Shown: positions 7,364 to 12,667 of the stretch, piece by piece
Numbering within the stretch: position 1 is the stretch's first letter
Layout: each line of letters starts with the position of its first letter
From: a virus
DNA: 64,000 nt
Strand: one strand, 5' to 3'
Virus record (IMG/VR): IMGVR_UViG_3300032334_001019
Location: 54,465-118,464 of that record
The notes under the pieces: generated by a model
Seen by the model: the letters and a program-made list of their open reading frames with translations, nothing else
Told to the model about the DNA's origin: nothing
Database searches by the model: none
Program-made: the position numbers and the translations under genes

Positions 7364-7760
7364 TTAGTCTCCTTGATTAACTAGATAAGCACGAACTTCT
7401 TCCAGGGCATCAATAGCCTGTTCACATACTACAATCATATCTTCTCTAGTCATTAGTCAAAATACCCTTCTGCCCATAGACCCTGGAGGAATGCATAGGT
7501 CTTAGCCAAACCATCAGAAACAGTTTCATCTGTTGTGTAATCATGAGCGGTACCAACTGAGTTAATCATTTCATCTAACTCTATTTTAGTATATCCTAGC
7601 ATTATTCAACATACCCCACAATCATTTGCATAGCCTGGTGTAGGAAGCAATCGCAATCCCCACCATTCATATTTTCCATTAGTTCAAAGTGTGAGAAGTT
7701 ATCCTCGTAGATAGCGGTAAGTAGTTCATCTATTGTGTATGGTTTATAGGTCGTTGTCAT
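7364..7760 (-). CDS. three translationally coupled small ORFs (7602..7760, 7453..7602, 7364..7453)
   Basis: Manual translation MTTTYKPYTIDEL..., MLGYTKIELDEM..., MTREDMIVVCEQ..., joined by TAATG overlaps. Confidence 0.55.
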
Positions 7761-7886
7761 AGATTAATTCTACCCTAGACTGGGGAAAAATGCAAGTCAT
7801 CTTAAAGTTTTTATATAAGAAATTTCATTGTCCGAAATGTCCGTTTTTCACGTCCCGCATTTTTATGCATATCAGTGAATAAAAAT

Positions 7887-7915
7887 TGAGCAGTTTATTC
7901 TCATGCTCAGGAGAT
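7887..7915 (-). ncRNA. candidate H-type pseudoknot element, copy 1 of 5
   Basis: Minus strand TCTC-CT-GAGCA-T-GAGA-AT-AAAC-TGCTC, just after the DUF932 stop codon. Confidence 0.65.
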
Positions 7916-7922
7916 TTTTTAT

Positions 7923-8939
7923 TTATGCAATCTGCAAAGTGCTTTGCACAATTTTGAGCAAACGATTTTTCTCTGCGTTAATTGCAGGGTCAAATCCGCT
8001 TGCACTTGCAAGGATAGATTCGTTAGAACCACCACGAGCAGAACGATACCAATCTAAACGCTCTGTGAGCGCATTGAAAGCGCCCCATGCGTTACCAGCA
8101 ATCATTCCGTTAAACTCGCCTGTGTAGATGTCGTTAATAACATCGACCTTGTTTTCCCACTTCTTGAACGCACCCTTAGAGTCTTTTTCAGGCTTAGGGT
8201 ATGCAGCAAGAATGATGTCGTTGAATTGCTTAGCATTGACTTCTGTTTCAATCATAGCCTTAGCCATGAGGTCAAAAGAATCCATGTACTTATGAGCCAT
8301 GCCTAATGTCTCACGAGCAACTTGTACCTTGCCAGCAGCAGTTTGCGTGTGGCGAATCTTGAAAGATTGCTTGATGCCATTCTTACGCTTAGTAGTGTTA
8401 AGTGCAAGATTGAGGGTGTTAGCGCACACAACACGAACAGGTGTTATGCTTGCTTGAATAGCGATTGAGCCATCGTGTGATGTGTTGATTAGAAGATAAG
8501 TCTTTACCTTATCTGCTACACCGTTAGGGTCAAGAACTGTTTCACGCTCTAGTGCTAAAGCGCCAAATACTACACGACCACCCTTGATTGAGCCAGCGGT
8601 CTCCCAACGACCTCCGCCGTCAAGAATGTTATCACCAAATGAAAATAAATCTTCATTCTGCATAACATGATAACGCTCACCTACGACACCTAAAATGTCT
8701 GTCTGTGAATTATCTGTAGGGTTAGTACGCAAAACATACTGGTATGTCTTGTCGCTTGTTAAATGTGATGGGGTTTCCAAATCTTCCAGACGAACATTCC
8801 AACCATTGAGGTTTGCAGCCTCTAGCATTTCTGCTGTTGTTTTTTCTTCTGTAAATACGGTACCCAATCCATGCCAAGCGGGTTCACGAAATGATGCGAA
8901 TGAAGCCTTACCATTTTGTGTTTCGATTTCATGTGCCAT
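7923..8939 (-). CDS. DUF932 family (phage/plasmid-like protein)
   Basis: Start corrected to MAHEIE (AAGGAG RBS). Motifs REPAWHGLG, WETAGSIKGG, NTSHDGS, TPVRVVCANTL, IRHT. Confidence 0.85.
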   Translation of the reverse strand: MAHEIETQNGKASFASFREPAWHGLGTVFTEEKTTAEMLEAANLNGWNVRLEDLETPSHLTSDKTYQYVLRTNPTDNSQTDILGVVGERYHVMQNEDLFSFGDNILDGGGRWETAGSIKGGRVVFGALALERETVLDPNGVADKVKTYLLINTSHDGSIAIQASITPVRVVCANTLNLALNTTKRKNGIKQSFKIRHTQTAAGKVQVARETLGMAHKYMDSFDLMAKAMIETEVNAKQFNDIILAAYPKPEKDSKGAFKKWENKVDVINDIYTGEFNGMIAGNAWGAFNALTERLDWYRSARGGSNESILASASGFDPAINAEKNRLLKIVQSTLQIA

Positions 8940-8970
8940 GAGTTTACTCCTTTGTTGTTGTTGAGATTTA

Positions 8971-8999
8971 AGTATAACAGGATGGGCTGACAAATGCAA
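8971..8999 (-). promoter_or_regulatory. early promoter TTGCAT-N17-TATACT with TGTCAG spacer box
   Basis: The same geometry recurs at 9595-9624, 10366-10394, 11965-11993, 12834-12855, 13961-13982 and 14172-14193. Confidence 0.7.
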
Positions 9000-9105
9000 A
9001 TCGGGATAGTTAAACATGGGCAATTTGGACATGGGAAAAGTTTGACTGATCATAACGGCGTGTCGACTTGACAGGGGACGTGGCAAAATTTTGCAGGGAT
9101 TGAAG

Positions 9106-9134
9106 GAGCAGTTTTAAAACATGCTTAGGTTTTA
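9106..9134 (-). ncRNA. candidate pseudoknot element, copy 2
   Basis: TAAAAC-CT-AAGCA-T-GTTTTA-AAAC-TGCTC. Confidence 0.65.
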
Positions 9135-9148
9135 TTAGTAGCCCCCTA

Positions 9149-9562
9149 CTAAATATCGATACGGTCAACACTGGATGATAAATAAGTTACACCCTGTGGT
9201 TCTGATACAGAATCAAAATCAATGTCATGAATTAAATTCATTGCTGATTCTTCATCTCGTGCATTGACTGTAATTGAATATTGAACTGTAACTTCTAGTT
9301 CAAATTCTTTTGATAATTCAAATCCGCAAATATCTGCAATTGATTGAGCAGTGTCTTCATCAATGGTACCAAATTCCATTGCTTCCAAGGTCCACTCTTG
9401 CATTTCGCTACGCATACGGGAGCGCTCTGCAGCCTCGCCATATGAGCGCTGAGTTACTGTTTGAATGTGCTCTTCAAGTTGCTTGATACGCTCATCCTTT
9501 TGTGCAATTTGAGATTGAAGAAAATCTATTGTTGTGTTTGGTATTACTGTTGTTTGGTCCAT
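9149..9562 (-). CDS. hypothetical protein with N-terminal coiled coil
   Basis: 137 aa, with its own promoter at 9595-9624. Confidence 0.7.
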   Translation of the reverse strand: MDQTTVIPNTTIDFLQSQIAQKDERIKQLEEHIQTVTQRSYGEAAERSRMRSEMQEWTLEAMEFGTIDEDTAQSIADICGFELSKEFELEVTVQYSITVNARDEESAMNLIHDIDFDSVSEPQGVTYLSSSVDRIDI

Positions 9563-9636
9563 GGGGGCCTTTTTCTGTTAGTTTGTTTAATTTAATTGTA
9601 CAGGTGCCCACTGACAAATGTCAAGGACCCTTGCGG

Positions 9637-9665
9637 GAAGCAGTTTAGCGACATACTTAGGTCGT
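9637..9665 (-). ncRNA. candidate pseudoknot element, copy 3
   Basis: CGAC-CT-AAGTA-T-GTCG-CT-AAAC-TGCTT. Confidence 0.65.
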
Positions 9666-9673
9666 TTATTTAA

Positions 9674-10096
9674 TTAGAGATAACGAGCAACCGCTTGATA
9701 AGTTGATGTGGAAACTACTTCCTCATCTGTCATCTTGAGGATACGAATTGCATTAAGCATTTCCTCTTTTTGCTCATTGTATGTGTGAGCGTGCATAACT
9801 GTAAAGTCACGCTGAGGCTCTTTAGGCAAATCCTTTTCTGCAACTGTTAGGTCATAGTCAATGTTTAGTGTATTGTTCCATGAACGATAGTTGGTGCGGA
9901 AGTTTTCTGCCTTCTTGATGTTAGCAATAGCATAGTCAGAAATCTCTTTCTGCCAAGCCTTACGAGCCTTCTCATACTTTGCTTCGTTTGCTTCTTGTGA
10001 TGAGTAATCTGACTCTAGTTTTGCTAGTGCAGTTTCTAGTGCCTTGATTACCTTTGGTGTTGCGATTTTAACTGAGATTGCTTTTCCTCTTGCCAT
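9674..10096 (-). CDS. hypothetical protein
   Basis: 140-aa, mostly helical-looking ORF with an AGAAAG RBS. Confidence 0.7.
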   Translation of the reverse strand: MARGKAISVKIATPKVIKALETALAKLESDYSSQEANEAKYEKARKAWQKEISDYAIANIKKAENFRTNYRSWNNTLNIDYDLTVAEKDLPKEPQRDFTVMHAHTYNEQKEEMLNAIRILKMTDEEVVSTSTYQAVARYL

Positions 10097-10132
10097 GTGT
10101 TAGGTCTCTTTCTGTTAGTTGGGGGGTGAGGT

Positions 10133-10160
10133 AAGCAGTTTGTATTCATGCTCAGGAATA
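10133..10160 (-). ncRNA. candidate pseudoknot element, copy 4
   Basis: TATTC-CT-GAGCA-T-GAATA-C-AAAC-TGCTT. Confidence 0.65.
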
Positions 10161-10166
10161 AGATAA

Positions 10167-10334
10167 TTACTGCTTAGGTGTCCAAGTGGTATAACGAGTC
10201 ATACCATTAACATCTAACTTTACACGAACATTACCATTTGCTTGTGGGTCAATGGCAAGGATTGTGCCTGTAACCTTTGACTTCTGTGAAGTGTATAGGT
10301 CGCCTACCTTGTATGTATTTGTTGCTACTGACAT
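10167..10334 (-). CDS. small SH3/KOW-like beta protein
   Basis: Start corrected to MSVATNTYKVGD (AAGGAG RBS, promoter at 10366-10394); KVGD..VTGTI..VRVKL pattern. Confidence 0.55.
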   Translation of the reverse strand: MSVATNTYKVGDLYTSQKSKVTGTILAIDPQANGNVRVKLDVNGMTRYTTWTPKQ

Positions 10335-10500
10335 TGTGTTTCTCCTTTTGTTTGTTGATAATCCAAGTATAACATTTCCTACTGACATTTTCAAGCCAGC
10401 CAAGAAAAATCTCACATCTTGGACTACGGGGGTTATTTTTTTCATACCTTAATTGTAGCAAGAAAATGTCAAAAATACAAATCCAAGCCCCAACAAGCGG

Positions 10501-10516
10501 TGTGAGAAAAATCACA
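10501..10516. promoter_or_regulatory. CRP/GlxR-type palindrome TGTGA-N6-TCACA
   Basis: Perfect match. Further perfect copies start at 7165, 12035, 12884, 13003, 14011 and 14232; one-mismatch copies at 14297 and 14532. Confidence 0.75.
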
Positions 10517-10652
10517 TCTTAAAGCGGTGTGTCAATTTGACAAATGACTGGTCAGCGACGTGGCCCTTTTTCAAGGGGATACTAAGATCCAGATGCACCA
10601 AGCATATTAGAAAGAATAACAATAAGAATTAAGATCATGAATAACTGTTTCA

Positions 10653-10970
10653 TTACTCTTCGTCTTCAATAAATACATAGAGTGGAATTAAATCAGTATA
10701 AGCAAATTGAATAACTTCTTTTTCACCAAACTCATTTTCTGTTTGAACATCATAGTTATCTCCTGTTGAGTCTGACTCAATAAATACAACCTCAACAATG
10801 TCATCACCAATCTTAACTAAATCACCAAGCATTAACTGGTCTGGTGTTAAAGTATCTGCGTGGATTAATTCCATAGCATTCATTGTAGCATTCATTTTAT
10901 TCCTCAATTCTGTTTTTGTATTTAAGTTTACGAGTGTATTTCTTTTTATTACGGACAGGGGTAGCCGCAT
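10653..10970 (-). CDS. acidic hypothetical protein
   Basis: The start is probably an internal Met following the GAGGA RBS. Confidence 0.55.
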   Translation of the reverse strand: MRLPLSVIKRNTLVNLNTKTELRNKMNATMNAMELIHADTLTPDQLMLGDLVKIGDDIVEVVFIESDSTGDNYDVQTENEFGEKEVIQFAYTDLIPLYVFIEDEE

Positions 10971-11002
10971 TACTACGGCGTAACTCCTGTATTCGATTAA
11001 CC

Positions 11003-11311
11003 TTACTCTTCATTACAGATACAATCTTCACAGTCACAACTCCAATCATGAGGCAACCATGCATCTAGGTGGTGTTGCTCAATGATAGCCCATGCTGGTG
11101 CAGTATCTTTGCCTCTGTAAGATACGCCTTCAGGCATCTCAATCTCACGATTAAAGTCCTCGTCATAGGCTGCATCAATAGCATCAATACAAGGCTGAAC
11201 CATGCTTAGTGGTACTGGAGGATAGTGATTACCTCTAAGGTGCATGCCAATAGCACTCTCAAGTGATAGATCAATGTTTTCTGCTAAGTCTAGTGCTGTA
11301 TTCATTCCCAT
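11003..11311 (-). CDS. hypothetical phage protein (HLRGNHYPPVP family)
   Basis: 102 aa, coupled to the upstream ORF. Confidence 0.65.
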   Translation of the reverse strand: MGMNTALDLAENIDLSLESAIGMHLRGNHYPPVPLSMVQPCIDAIDAAYDEDFNREIEMPEGVSYRGKDTAPAWAIIEQHHLDAWLPHDWSCDCEDCICNEE

Positions 11312-11538
11312 TATCGTGTTACCACCATTCCTGTTGTGTAGAGGGTCTTTGTATGCATCTTACCTGAAGGCTCTGACAAGTTAATTGTTGCGTATTCTTT
11401 AGCATCTCCACTATCAACAAACTGCTGAAAAGTTTCAACGGCACTTAATGCATCTGAGTAGCGACCAACCCAAGTAGGGGTAGGGGCTGAGTCATAGGTA
11501 CAAGTTACTGAGTATAGGTATTCATTCATTTTATGCAT
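11311..11538 (-). CDS. hypothetical protein
   Basis: 75 aa; TAATG coupling to the next gene. Confidence 0.6.
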   Translation of the reverse strand: MHKMNEYLYSVTCTYDSAPTPTWVGRYSDALSAVETFQQFVDSGDAKEYATINLSEPSGKMHTKTLYTTGMVVTR

Positions 11539-11710
11539 TCTCCAATGTGTATTCGTTCATTTCGTTACTAGCATACCATTCGGTGTATTCGTTGTAAAGC
11601 GACACACCCAATGAACACTCACAAAATTCTGTGTCGTATTCACCATGTCCATTACCAAAGAATAGGACACCCTCATCATAGCATTCCATGCAATTCCAAT
11701 TATTCATTAT

Positions 11711-11920
11711 TTATTCTCCTGTCTTTACGGCAACTGTTGCCCAAAAATTTTTAATTCCACGAGTGGGGGATACTTCAATGGCATACGCCTCAAAGTTTTC
11801 ACCATACCAAACACCATCACGCTTTTCTGCGTATAGGATAGTGCCTTCATCATGGCGAGAGTGTGAGCGATAGTATTTTCCCTCTAAGAGGCTTTCTATT
11901 GTATAAGGTTTTGCTGACAT
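11711..11920 (-). CDS. hypothetical protein
   Basis: Start corrected to MSAKPYTI, downstream of the promoter at 11965-11993. Confidence 0.55.
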   Translation of the reverse strand: MSAKPYTIESLLEGKYYRSHSRHDEGTILYAEKRDGVWYGENFEAYAIEVSPTRGIKNFWATVAVKTGE

Positions 11921-12122
11921 GAGCAACCTGCTTTCTTTTTGTTTAATTACTTTATTACTCTGTAATCCTATCATTTTCTACTGACAAATACAAGACGACA
12001 CGCCATAAATCTTAAAAAGTGAGACGCTGGAGAATGTGAGAAAAATCACACACACTTAAAGTTATACACACCCTGTGGACGACACGCCCGACTGCGGGAC
12101 GTCAAATTTTAGTTGAAAGTTA

Positions 12123-12150
12123 AAGCAGTTTTAAATCGTGCTTAGGATCT
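12123..12150 (-). ncRNA. candidate pseudoknot element, copy 5
   Basis: AGATC-CT-AAGCA-C-GATTT-A-AAAC-TGCTT. Confidence 0.6.
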
Positions 12151-12170
12151 CCCCTTAGCCTGGCTCCAGA

Positions 12171-12353
12171 CTAAACTAATTCATTTTCTTTAACGCAAGC
12201 GTTCCAAAATCTTGTTTCATCAAATCTTGGATTATCTGCACTAAACCATTCGCTAAATTCAAAAACTAAATCATTAAAAGAATGTGAATCCATTCTGTTG
12301 ATAAATTGGTTTAGAATGTTTGCAGTTTCTACATAGTCTTTGCGTGTCATCAT
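12171..12353 (-). CDS. hypothetical phage protein (MTRKDY...DNPRFD)
   Basis: 60-aa small early-type protein. Confidence 0.65.
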   Translation of the reverse strand: MMTRKDYVETANILNQFINRMDSHSFNDLVFEFSEWFSADNPRFDETRFWNACVKENELV

Positions 12354-12355
12354 GA

Positions 12356-12667
12356 TTACTCACCATCCAATTTTAAGAATGCGTAGGACCCACCCTCGTT
12401 GATGTGTTCTAATTGTGCAAGGACCTCATCACGAGTTGTATTTTCTGTAATTGTAAGCAACTCGTCAATCATGCCTTTGTTCATGTTAATAAACATTCCT
12501 TCAGGTAGGTTAATTACTTGAGGATAGACAACTGATTCAATTTCTACATGAGAAACAAAATCAAATCCTTTATGTGTAAAAGGAAATAGTGCAAAGCGTG
12601 TTGTTGTGTTAGTCATTAGAGTGTAGCCTTTCCTCGTAGTGTGCCAGTAATTCCTAGAGTGTCGCAA
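12356..12667 (-). CDS. hypothetical protein
   Basis: Probable start MTNTTT at 12616, coupled to the upstream ORF. Confidence 0.55.
   Translation of the reverse strand: MRHSRNYWHTTRKGYTLMTNTTTRFALFPFTHKGFDFVSHVEIESVVYPQVINLPEGMFINMNKGMIDELLTITENTTRDEVLAQLEHINEGGSYAFLKLDGE

Follow-up and report, generated by a model that had tools for sequence, protein, structure and literature searches.

Five copies of a short motif follow stop codons in a phage genome

The window analysed here is a 64,000-nucleotide stretch of phage DNA (positions 54,465 to 118,464 of IMG/VR virus record IMGVR_UViG_3300032334_001019), in which five minus-strand genes are each followed, on the same strand, by one copy of a motif of 27–29 nt. 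The gene upstream of copy 1 (7923–8939) encodes a 338-residue DUF932 / phrog_1221 protein (Pfam E = 1.8e-47; PHROGs E = 1.4e-102). In Pfam and PHROGs the gene upstream of copy 2 (9149–9562, 137 aa) has no confident family, and those upstream of copy 3 (9674–10096, 140 aa) and copy 5 (12171–12353, 60 aa) have none. The gene upstream of copy 4 (10167–10334) is likewise without a family; it encodes approximately 55 residues from an ATG at 10334, and the open reading frame listing gives 10167–10445, from an earlier ATG.

Inspection of the minus strand placed copies 1 to 5 at 7888–7914, 9106–9134, 9638–9664, 10133–10160 and 12123–12150, behind stop codons at 7923, 9149, 9674, 10167 and 12171 and separated from them by 8, 14, 9, 6 and 20 nt, in agreement with an earlier sequence-only reading that had reported five such sites. 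The five-copy motif is more than chance. Each copy matched the full pattern and, with a covariance model built from copies in other phages, scored 47, 42.8, 40.1, 41.9 and 34.3 bits, respectively; the next match in the window scored 11.7 bits. The pattern occurs five times on one strand of the 118,464-nt genome, with no match on the other strand and none in a backwards-read control of the genome, and no further copies beyond the five were found in the 118-kb phage genome. The window contains 14 instances of the 8-mer made of the linker and the 3′ strand of the second stem; shuffles gave a mean of 3.88, and none of 100 reached 14.

Promoters and terminators were sought by consensus scan only. 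A strong sigma-70-like match (11/12; 9595–9624, minus strand) follows copy 3, ahead of the next gene, with further matches at 10366–10394 and 8971–9000. Between 7500 and 12700, none of the gene ends on the coding (minus) strand showed a terminator-like site; the single minus-strand terminator-like match in this interval falls inside a gene (11818–11833). Copy 4 had been described as mid-operon, and indeed the next gene starts at 10096, approximately 35 nt downstream, with no promoter-like site detected by the scan between the copy and that start codon. A T-run lies directly 3′ of copy 1. Separately, the stop codon ahead of copy 2 (9149–9151) sits within a small conserved hairpin.

The motif is predicted to fold as a compact pseudoknot

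Judged from its sequence, the motif is a cis-acting RNA whose two interleaved stems form a compact H-type pseudoknot. A variable 4-bp stem (S1) is closed by an invariant C-G pair, the first loop (L1) is CU, the 5-bp second stem (S2) is most often GAGCA paired with UGCUC, and the 6-nt loop L3 ends in AAAC; the one-base junction between the stems tolerates an inserted hairpin. For copy 1 (minus strand) the elements are the 5′ strand of S1 (7911–7914), L1 (CU, 7909–7910), the 5′ strand of S2 (7904–7908), the junction base (7903), the 3′ strand of S1 (7899–7902), L3 (nnAAAC, 7893–7898) and the 3′ strand of S2 (7888–7892). The sequence-only reading had listed the S1 pairs as TCTC/GAGA, TAAAAC/GTTTTA, CGAC/GTCG, TATTC/GAATA and AGATC/GATTT; all were found, those of copy 2 making S1 extendable to 6 pairs and those of copy 5 including one G-U pair, and the CT-RAGYA-Y loop, AAAC linker and TGCTY strand that it described are present in every copy.

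The interleaved topology proposed by that reading also held in independent sequences. Among the matches listed, the covariation sample comprised 139 distinct copies, all of them on other viral contigs. The two inner variable positions of S1 were paired in all 139, with four pair types each; 97.7% of cells were paired, compared with 79.4% in shuffles (0/500 shuffles reached this value), and sliding the partner strand left only 24–45% of cells paired. Once the search no longer fixed the S2 sequence, compensatory changes appeared at 4/5 of its pairs; the first S2 pair was G-C in 103 of these 139 copies, with 20 A-U and 10 G-U. Bases that do not vary are concentrated where the two helices meet. 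L1 was CU in 190/190 copies among the matches listed, although UU was permitted, and the fourth base of L3 was C in 188/190 of them, although it was left free. Both helices are thermodynamically weak alone, S1 ranging from +0.5 to −3.4 kcal/mol and S2 from −0.2 to −5.2 kcal/mol in the five window copies. In minimum free energy folds, S2 can be read as 6 bp long, the A that follows it pairing with the U of L1.

The pseudoknot is widespread and absent from Rfam 15

The motif family is large: at least hundreds of other phage sequences carry it, the counts from both collection scans being lower bounds. Its hosts are phages of many kinds, prophages, mobile elements and a few small bacterial genes, and five phages of about 100 kb each contain 3–7 matches at E ≤ 0.001. 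No family in Rfam 15 matched the pseudoknot, consistent with the initial impression that it was not a named family, and a literature search found no description of it. The function of the pseudoknot is inferred only. No protein family was found in more than 16/200 motif loci among the matches listed, arguing against a dedicated phage partner nearby.

The motif lies on the sense strand just past the stop codon of a co-oriented gene

Among the matches listed, the upstream gene was co-oriented in 99/141 viral cases and opposite in 7. The distance from the stop codon to the stem-closing C was never less than 8 nt in the copies among the matches listed; for the viral copies with a long upstream open reading frame it was 11–30 nt in 80/121 of the matches listed and below 11 nt in none of the 121. 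The spacer distribution peaks at 5–9 nt. Where the intergenic region was long, 36/68 copies among the matches listed hugged the stop codon, 12 hugged the next start and 20 did neither. Downstream starts fell within 40 nt in 58/131 of the matches listed, and a convergent gene came next in 18, so the motif needs no downstream gene. For 13 of 244 copies among the matches listed, a tRNA gene on the same strand comes 4–14 nt downstream, whereas only 1 of the 244 follows a tRNA gene; most copies have no tRNA gene nearby. In several Firmicutes prophages the motif stands just past a terminator-like hairpin, 40–60 nt upstream of a scaffold gene, and in small bacterial peptide genes it is followed by an ordinary terminator.

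Recoding at the stop codon was not supported: among the matches listed, at least 60 codons were open after a −1 shift in 6/121 copies, after a +1 shift in 5/121 and after read-through in 5/121 (median extensions 9, 4 and 7 codons, respectively), and the 121 copies contained only 2 distinct slippery-type heptamers.

Bases +1 to +10 after the motif are G-poor. The base following S2 is A in 56%, and then come pyrimidines, with G at 4–5%. Across 244 copies among the matches listed, the commonest triplets are ATT (30, expected 5.7), ACT (21, expected 3.9) and ACC (21, expected 2.7), and ACCA is present in 10. A U-tract directly follows 29/227 copies among the matches listed, against roughly 12 expected from our own binomial estimate, and a terminator-like hairpin lies within 70 nt downstream in 14/227; these low frequencies agree with the earlier view that the element is not a plain terminator. 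A classic riboswitch expression platform was likewise not supported, since downstream complementarity to the motif was no greater than in shuffles, which argues against a general platform of this kind.

A possible role in processing and protecting cistron ends

The sequence-only reading had left a nuclease block, processing or self-cleavage, antitermination and an aptamer as candidate functions, a list that the present analysis narrows only partly. Our tentative preference, resting on inference and quite possibly wrong, is for a non-terminating element that processes and stabilizes cistron ends. According to this model, the knot would mark the 3′ boundary of a cistron while RNA polymerase continues, placed at the closest distance at which the structure would stay folded with a ribosome on the stop codon; the ribosomal helicase acts about +11 from the P site, and the observed minimum spacer is 5 nt ahead of a 4-bp S1. 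A G-poor, A/U-rich single-stranded stretch, a tRNA gene or the next ribosome-binding site comes after the knot; once an RNase E-like or RNase Y-like endonuclease or, beside a tRNA, RNase P had cut there, the knot would be only a few nucleotides from the newly made 3′ end and would halt 3′-to-5′ exonucleases, thereby protecting the upstream message. At an adjoining tRNA, RNase P cleavage would leave the knot as the 3′ end of the message. In favour of this reading, the coding strand between 7500 and 12700 has several promoter-like sites and no gene-end terminator-like site. Between the early genes of T7, hairpins cut by RNase III recur in a comparable way, intercistronic and within an early region rich in promoters, and both kinds of element would define and stabilize mRNA 3′ ends without ending transcription; however, the T7 hairpins are long imperfect duplexes of one phage lineage, whereas the 9-bp pseudoknot is too short for RNase III and occurs in very different phages.

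The weak helices are unlike classic exonuclease barriers, so a block would have to come from the conserved junction, through loop-helix triples, or from a host factor bound to the knot. No RNA run carrying this sequence was listed, and no RNA ends were observed. A mere barrier would also not need the invariant loop bases (CU in L1, C in L3), which are more typical of a catalytic core, ligand pocket or factor-binding site. Moreover, the upstream message in the Firmicutes prophages is already capped by the preceding terminator-like hairpin, and the terminator behind the motif in small bacterial peptide genes would make protection redundant there.

Alternative explanations

Invariant junction bases beside a freely covarying outer helix, with an optional hairpin tolerated at the junction, would also suit a very small self-cleaving ribozyme of a new class, which would cleave polycistronic phage transcripts at the boundaries between cistrons and need no host factor. 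We regard this as unlikely but worth retaining, for the distribution resembles that of known small ribozymes: broad hosts and habitats, many phage and prophage copies, several per genome (3–7 in the five ~100-kb phages) and no gene association. At about 28 nt, however, the motif is below the size of any natural self-cleaving class known to us; no Rfam ribozyme model matches, there are no cleavage data, and, were the knot itself cut, the tail of the upstream message would be unprotected. Some copies adjoin tRNA genes, as theta ribozymes often do; these minimal HDV-like RNAs have helices P1–P4 and a catalytic C in J4/2 and abut the tRNA 3′ end (PMC10879173). Both are small pseudoknotted RNAs, mostly of tailed phages and sense to their neighbours, but the motif has only two helices and lies on the other side of the tRNA (13 copies 4–14 nt upstream and 1 downstream among the matches listed).

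Proximity to tRNA genes also bears on a still less probable idea, that S2 stacked on S1 imitates an acceptor/T helix, which host tRNA-processing enzymes would read as punctuation. The RNase P cut would fall just before S2, with the U of L1 at −1; in another version, RNase Z or exonucleases would remove what lies beyond the base following S2. The invariant −1 U (190/190 among the matches listed), the mostly G-C first S2 pair, the A in 56% and then pyrimidines after S2, the excess of ACC (21/244 among the matches listed versus 2.7 expected) and the 13 listed copies occupying the first slot ahead of tRNA genes at tRNA-like spacing (4–14 nt) all fit, and a universal host enzyme would account for conservation over very different hosts. 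The TYMV tRNA-like structure has a pseudoknotted acceptor arm, and such plant-virus arms and other non-tRNA RNase P substrates share the strand topology, the U before the first S2 base, the exit into A and then pyrimidines, and, for the motif, the tRNA neighbourhood. Yet CCA is not specifically conserved (ACCA in 10/244 of the matches listed, ATT being the commonest triplet), the A after S2 may equally pair with the L1 U, the stack is 9 bp rather than 12 and lacks a T-loop or D-loop mimic, and an invariant AAAC loop would not be required. The motif also lies within mRNAs instead of at the end of a genome, and ARAGORN called no tRNA at any copy.

The sharp minimum distance from the stop codon and the 5–9-nt spacer mode correspond to frameshift-pseudoknot geometry and raise the improbable alternative of a ribosome-directed element, either a tRNA-anticodon-arm/codon mimic or a roadblock at the mRNA entry channel. 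Its targets would be ribosomes in termination or recycling, or else it would keep 30S subunits in place for the cistron that follows. The order of stem, C-U, pairing triplet, A-rich linker and codon-like strand resembles an anticodon arm; in domain PKI of the dicistrovirus IGR IRES an anticodon-like triplet pairs in cis. The decoding centre is universal, which fits the host breadth, and the next ribosome-binding site often follows (58/131 starts within 40 nt among the matches listed). The BWYV luteovirus-type −1 frameshift pseudoknot is also ~28 nt, with a first loop beginning with C, a single junction pyrimidine and an adenine-rich second loop, 5–9 nt past the ribosome-occupied codon; the motif differs in having no slippery heptamer or extended alternative frame, in following stop codons of DNA phages and in its A/U-rich, variable S1. 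Against a ribosomal target, 18 copies among the matches listed face a convergent gene, and tRNA genes or, in the window, promoters follow others, so downstream translation is not required; the window copies have no open frame starting right behind the motif, and recoding is not supported.

Two readings are very unlikely. As a ligand-sensing aptamer, the motif would tune termination, decay or downstream expression for a common metabolite. The preQ1-I aptamer matches it in size (~30 nt) and H-type topology, with a short variable first stem, conserved junction bases and an A-rich 3′ loop ending AAAC just ahead of the 3′ strand of the second stem; ligand binding in these aptamers takes place around the helical junction, which is also where the invariant bases lie, and weak helices would gain from ligand stabilization. 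But the loop sequences differ, and neither PreQ1 nor any other riboswitch model of Rfam matched a 56-nt stretch even at E ≤ 10. preQ1-I riboswitches occupy the 5′ leaders of queuosine genes, whereas the motif is multi-copy, lies behind stop codons rather than ahead of genes, and is associated with no gene class. As a transcription-level signal, the motif would cause pausing or termination or, like put, antitermination, acting on RNA polymerase as the motif itself emerges; this would fit its placing at expected terminator positions in a window region with promoters and no gene-end terminator-like sites, and the U-tract excess (29/227 among the matches listed versus roughly 12) includes window copy 1. 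Nevertheless, 87% of copies among the matches listed lack a U-tract, copy 4 and many others are mid-operon or ahead of tRNA genes that need transcription, and five copies in 4 kb are unlike known antiterminator RNAs.

A DNA-level site (a protein operator on the inverted repeat that S2 forms in DNA, or a recombination site) or a stimulator of frameshifting or read-through, suggested by spacing like that of recoding signals, has only a slim chance and is already largely refuted by the covariation (the two strands of S1 remain complementary although the S1 sequence is different in each copy, a pattern that a protein site leaves unexplained), the strict strand specificity relative to genes and the frame test.

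The family of the protein encoded upstream of copy 1 recurs near the motif elsewhere: DUF932 / phrog_1221 was present in 15/200 loci among the matches listed, directly upstream of the motif in 8 of the 15, and the motif often comes next after DUF932 homologues in related phages.

A compact RNA motif recurs behind stop codons in the window

Direct reading of the minus strand across positions 7700-12400 of the window identified five copies of a motif with a single shared layout. Written as RNA, each copy begins with the 5′ strand of an outer stem (S1; 4-6 nt with a final C), followed by CU (loop L1), RAGYA and one pyrimidine, and continues with the 3′ strand of S1 (its first base G), 0-2 free bases, AAAC (the end of loop L3) and UGCUY; RAGYA and UGCUY are the two strands of the second stem (S2). 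The sequence-only reading had placed these elements just behind stop codons and had described S1 as different in every copy yet always complementary, and both statements held. The core of copy 1 lies at 7888-7914, 8 nt after the stop codon of an open reading frame; copy 2 at 9106-9134 (spacer of 14 nt), copy 3 at 9638-9664 (9 nt), copy 4 at 10133-10160 (6 nt) and copy 5 at 12123-12150 (20 nt) follow the same arrangement, all on the minus strand.

The word AAACTGCT occurs 14 times in the window, compared with a shuffle mean of 3.88, and the two-part pattern is found there at these five places only. Across the whole 118,464-nt source virus record, which has direct terminal repeats, the pattern was detected five times on one strand, never on the other and never in a backwards control. 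A covariance model built almost wholly on copies from other phages (R1) scored the five window copies at 34.3-47 bits, and the next match within the window reached 11.7 bits. The five-copy match far exceeds chance expectation.

Other features were observed beside the copies. A small hairpin with a 6-bp stem and a GGGG loop (9135-9152, minus strand) lies directly upstream of copy 2, where it overlaps the TAG stop codon of a 137-aa gene, and it is kept in related phages (motif-bearing loci L007, L035, L052 and L061). Separately, an A/T run followed by a TTCGAC- or TTGAC-like word is present ~20-30 nt downstream of several motif copies (window positions ~12075-12100 and 9070-9095, minus strand; also loci L007, L061 and L085), and may represent the UP element and −35 box of the next promoter.

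Covariation supports an interleaved two-stem fold

IMG/VR was scanned with a pattern in which S1 was free apart from its closing C-G pair and most of S2 was fixed, yielding at least 140 matches at no fewer than 119 loci. S1 contained at least three pairs in all 140 matches listed (three in 25, four in 74, five in 26 and six or seven in 15); by our own estimate, the chance of S1 reaching three pairs is ~0.14. In an alignment of the 139 distinct copies among the matches listed (A1), the two inner variable pairs of S1 were standard in 139/139, with four pair types at each, and the fourth pair was standard in 110 of 133 scorable copies. Paired cells amounted to 97.7%, compared with 79.4% in shuffles (none of 500 reached the observed value) and 24-45% with a slid partner. 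At positions beyond four pairs only 36% of cells were paired, which is chance level; an extension of S1 past 4 bp was therefore rejected, leaving a 4-bp helix and an L3 of 6 nt.

Because the first pattern had fixed most of S2, this helix was tested separately. The single S2 pair left free in A1 was G-C in 103 of the 139 copies, A-U in 20, G-U in 10 and something else in 6. R1, which treats the S2 columns as unpaired, recovered ~30 further copies outside the strict pattern from 100 loci. When 25 copies violating that pattern were aligned with the five window copies (A4), neither S2 pair 2 (A-U 27, G-C 3) nor pair 4 (C-G 21, U-G 5, U-A 4) contained a mismatch. A structure-only scan of 1.96 Mb accepted any 5-bp complementary S2, provided that the closing C-G pair, CU or UU in L1, AAA followed by any base and an S1 of 4 bp or more were present. 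Of the 190 copies that it recovered, 16 showed other S2 pairings; the changes lay at pairs 2, 3 and 4, with a single one at pair 5. As a control, candidates whose S2 5′ strand was non-canonical were scored: full pairing was seen in 12 of 183, compared with 4, 1 and 2 of 183 when partners were slid and 3 of 177 in reversed sequence. The proposed H-type pseudoknot is thus supported by covariation of S1 in A1 and by varied S2 pairings in A4 and the structure-only scan, and a covariance-model search of 100 loci did find further copies with compensatory stem changes.

The linkers had been described as invariant. This was so for L1, which was CU in 190/190 copies of the structure-only scan, and nearly so for AAAC, the last base of which was C in 188/190 although it had been left free. 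A subclass of four copies found with the covariance model carries A at this position. This subclass (L044:2934-2971, L009:11342-11379, L009:12066-12103 and L061:4516-4553) also has G for U as the first base of the S2 3′ strand, the two changes always co-occur, and the paired change may reflect tertiary covariation at the junction.

The junction base between the S2 5′ strand and the S1 3′ strand was U in 133 of the 190 copies, C in 34, A in 22 and G in 1, and two loci carry an extra hairpin inserted at this point (L051:6624-6672 and L054:3082-3145). The truly fixed bases are the closing C-G pair of S1, the CU of L1, the junction-proximal A-U pair of S2 and AAAC, a conservation pattern that surrounds the helical junction. 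The individual helices of the window copies are weak, with nearest-neighbour energies of +0.5 to −3.4 kcal/mol for S1 and −0.2 to −5.2 kcal/mol for S2.

The motif is widespread in phages

The window derives from a tailed phage whose genes include those for a portal protein, a head protease, ribonucleotide reductase and tail fibres. Five phages of ~100 kb each contain 3-7 model matches, most of them clustered over a few kb like those of the window. In window-like phages the motif is often preceded by the DUF932/phrog_1221 gene; in one locus group it follows an Hsp20-like gene, and in Firmicutes prophages it lies between minor-capsid and scaffold genes. Across 200 motif-bearing loci the most widespread neighbouring protein family occurred in at most 16, and a shared partner protein was rejected on this ground.

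A scan of bacterial and archaeal genome contigs gave at least 125 matches. Among the 125 listed, S1 reached at least three pairs in 86 and at least four in 61, while the remaining 39 look like chance. The real matches come from Saccharibacteria and other Patescibacteria, Lachnospiraceae, Enterococcus, Bacillus, lactobacilli, Clostridium, Anaerolineae, Aminicenantes, Desulfobacterota and a few archaeal bins, and their neighbouring proteins are mostly of phage or mobile-element type. One genome contig (L243) holds five copies within ~4 kb, several behind short open reading frames. Phages that carry the motif infect bacteria of freshwater, marine, gut and soil habitats.

Two cultured phages carry one copy each: Methylophilales phage Melnitz (MZ577097.1, 47736-47769), where a small gene flanks it on either side and a TAG stop codon precedes it by 6 nt, and Phage C48C1 (OQ984149.1, 55460-55492). 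A degenerate motif-like element (3-bp stem, shortened loop, AAAC and partial S2; L250:1010-1035) was also seen in C48C1, 4 nt after the 3′ end of tRNA-Tyr and ~25 nt upstream of the full copy. Six other marine phages that were checked contain no copy. Syn9, P-SSM4, HTVC010P and Synechococcus phage ACG-2014f gave no model match at E ≤ 0.01, and weak matches in P-SSM2 and HTVC008M comprise only the 3′ half of the motif and were not accepted as members. A Latilactobacillus phage related to an Enterococcus prophage locus has a gap of only 40 nt at the matching junction. Megablast of window positions 7700-12400 against 50,697 phage records gave no match, and no RNA data set is listed as containing this stretch.

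Copies follow gene ends at a minimum distance

Among the matches listed, 99 of 141 viral cases have an upstream gene oriented like the motif and 7 have one facing the other way; a convergent gene follows 18 copies (8 viral, 10 genomic). Stop codon distances were determined for the 121 viral copies among the matches listed that have an upstream open reading frame of at least 60 codons. The stop codon started 11-30 nt before the closing C in 80 of these, exactly 11 nt before it in 18 and never closer. The spacer between the stop codon and the first S1 pair, which shows no sequence conservation, measured 3 nt in 1 copy, 4 nt in 5, 5 nt in 18, 6 nt in 18, 7 nt in 12, 8 nt in 10, 9 nt in 13, 10 nt in 7 and 11 nt in 6, followed by a tail. 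Of the 68 copies in long intergenic regions, 36 keep close to the stop codon, 12 keep close to the next start and 20 do neither.

A position directly behind stop codons could suggest a stimulator of −1 frameshifting or read-through; this was rejected, with only 2 distinct slippery-type heptamers among the 121 copies. Extensions of at least 60 codons numbered 6 (−1), 5 (+1) and 5 (read-through), and the median extension was 9, 4 and 7 codons, respectively.

Intrinsic (Rho-independent) terminators consist of a G+C-rich hairpin with an immediate U-tract. A U-tract directly follows only 29 of 227 copies, the helices are weak and A/U-rich, and many copies lie mid-operon or ahead of tRNA genes, so the motif was rejected as an intrinsic terminator, in agreement with the view that it is not a plain terminator. 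Terminator-like hairpins within 70 nt were equally rare downstream and upstream (14/227 each). The window region contains several sigma-70-like promoter matches and, on the coding strand, no terminator-like site at any gene end.

The motif matches no known family in the catalogues searched

Rfam 15 gave no match at gathering thresholds in the 64-kb window, only four noise matches (E 1.8-8) in region 7700-12400 and none at E ≤ 10 in the 56 nt around copy 4. In 19 other motif-bearing loci (147 kb) it identified two tRNAs and one tmRNA, none on the motif. The expectation that no named family would emerge was therefore met, no family being at or near threshold. The literature searched contains no description of the motif, although the supplementary tables of a 2023 catalogue of 10,006 candidate viral RNAs (PMC10690425) were not covered and may contain it unnamed. 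The accessible part of 10.64898/2026.09.22.753630 is unrelated to the motif.

In architecture the motif resembles compact triple-helix pseudoknots such as preQ1-I aptamers, luteoviral frameshift knots and the TYMV acceptor arm; beyond this likeness, it satisfied none of the criteria tested for preQ1-I riboswitches and frameshift pseudoknots. We regard it as a new RNA family of unknown function that is strongly supported in structure and widely distributed. A 28-nt RNA with a near-invariant junction that accompanies unrelated genes and is absent from the searched catalogues is a candidate for a new class of functional RNA.

Possible roles at cistron ends

The simplest reading, offered tentatively and with more doubt than confidence, is that the motif acts as a processing and stability module at cistron ends, a function inferred from its position and fold. 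The closest allowed position was taken as 5 nt between the stop codon and the 4-bp S1. The ribosomal helicase site lies at ~+11 from the first P-site base, and frameshift pseudoknots have a spacing equal to this 5-nt minimum. This minimum would equal the spacing that allows a helix downstream to remain folded while the stop codon occupies the ribosomal A site. Since the minimum spacing matches this ribosomal limit, the motif seems to have been selected to stay folded on translated messages and seems to be placed as near the gene end as physics allows. According to this model, RNA polymerase would continue past the motif into the next gene, a tRNA gene or a promoter region. A cut in an A/U-rich stretch, or RNase P cleavage at a tRNA, would then leave the knot at the 3′ end, where it would stop 3′ exonucleases short of the stop codon.

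However, the helix energies are low for such a barrier, the invariant junction bases look more like a catalytic, ligand-binding or factor-binding core, and in Firmicutes prophages some copies follow a terminator-like hairpin, just as those in small bacterial peptide genes precede an ordinary terminator. These weak points keep four rivals alive.

Two of the rivals infer cleavage and can be combined into one proposal, which is possible but rather doubtful: that the motif is a self-contained RNA punctuation mark with which many unrelated phages cut polycistronic transcripts at gene ends, either by the smallest natural self-cleaving ribozyme class yet seen or by a minimal pseudoknotted tRNA-acceptor mimic recruiting universal tRNA-processing enzymes. 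On its own, a new and very small self-cleaving ribozyme appears unlikely. The distribution of the motif is typical of ribozymes; hammerhead, twister, pistol, hatchet and HDV-like/theta ribozymes were each rejected, as no Rfam ribozyme model matches. For the theta/HDV-like ribozyme, PMC10879173 describes a P1-P4 architecture, which the motif lacks, and the motif lies on the opposite side of the tRNA.

We consider it less likely still that RNase P or RNase Z reads the motif as a pseudoknotted tRNA-acceptor mimic. Here, U at −1 and the G-C first pair of S2 fit, as do the bases after S2: the base after the motif is A in 56% of copies, followed by pyrimidines, and G stays low for ~10 bases. Position also agrees, since 13 of 244 copies have a tRNA gene on the same strand 4-14 nt further downstream (six tRNA identities) and one copy lies downstream of a tRNA. 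Against this reading, CCA itself is not conserved: S2 is followed by ACC in 21 of the 244 copies and by ACCA in 10. Mitochondrial transcripts are punctuated by tRNAs, and the mimic, if real, would be the bacterial-virus counterpart.

Binding of the motif to the ribosome, which is likewise only inferred, is improbable. Least favoured among the survivors, and very unlikely in our judgement, is an inferred ligand aptamer, including one for preQ1. The preQ1-I riboswitch resides in the 5′ leader of genes for queuosine or preQ1 synthesis or transport, which it controls. The motif shares with it an H-type topology and an A-rich 3′ tail, as judged by covariation, and this likeness is one of architecture only; by contrast, the motif stands behind stop codons, and the genes around it are unrelated, most of them coding for phage structural proteins or lacking a known function. 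A classic riboswitch was rejected, as there is no gene association and downstream complementarity to the motif equals that of shuffles.

The remaining candidates can be dismissed briefly. Type III toxin-antitoxin RNAs are tandem near-identical repeats next to a ToxN-like toxin gene, whereas the motif copies are dispersed, differ in their genes and S1 and have no common neighbour family. A CRISPR repeat or solitary unit is excluded by an S1 that differs in every copy (a CRISPR-DR66 match was noise, at 19.4 bits against a threshold of 45 and on the opposite strand), and a DNA site for a protein by an S1 that changes sequence yet keeps its complementarity and strand.

The motif appears to work in very different hosts with no dedicated partner gene nearby, and its role would therefore reveal a general rule of how phage messages are organised or protected. 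Candidate roles include a 3′ cap, a ribozyme, a tRNA-processing decoy and a ribosome binder. Its small size makes the motif easy to test, and experiments are possible because a cultured phage-host pair (Methylophilales phage Melnitz) carries a copy; we consider it worth such work. Should it insulate or stabilise cistrons, it would provide a ready-made part for synthetic operons.

Other elements associated with motif copies

Locus L100 has an Rfam tmRNA match (11486-11558; 47.3 bits, threshold 47) ~90 nt downstream of a motif copy, and ARAGORN calls a tmRNA in another motif-bearing viral locus (L042:11748-12110). In three Saccharibacteria loci (L136, L215 and L223), a segment of 9-10 nt, set 4 nt beyond the motif, shows complementarity to the S2 5′ and S1 3′ strands and could form an alternative hairpin, seen in that lineage only. 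Finally, some genome contigs contain stand-alone genes for a peptide of 20-26 aa with the conserved core P-R-V-x-H-C-x-x-G-C (L133, L141, L207, L240, L212, L180, L218, L228, L158 and L173, from MAGs of Aminicenantes, Anaerolineae, Thermodesulfobacteriota and Eubacteriales). All of these genes possess a promoter-like site and a ribosome-binding site; in each, the UGA stop codon falls within the pseudoknot loop, and an ordinary terminator hairpin comes next.
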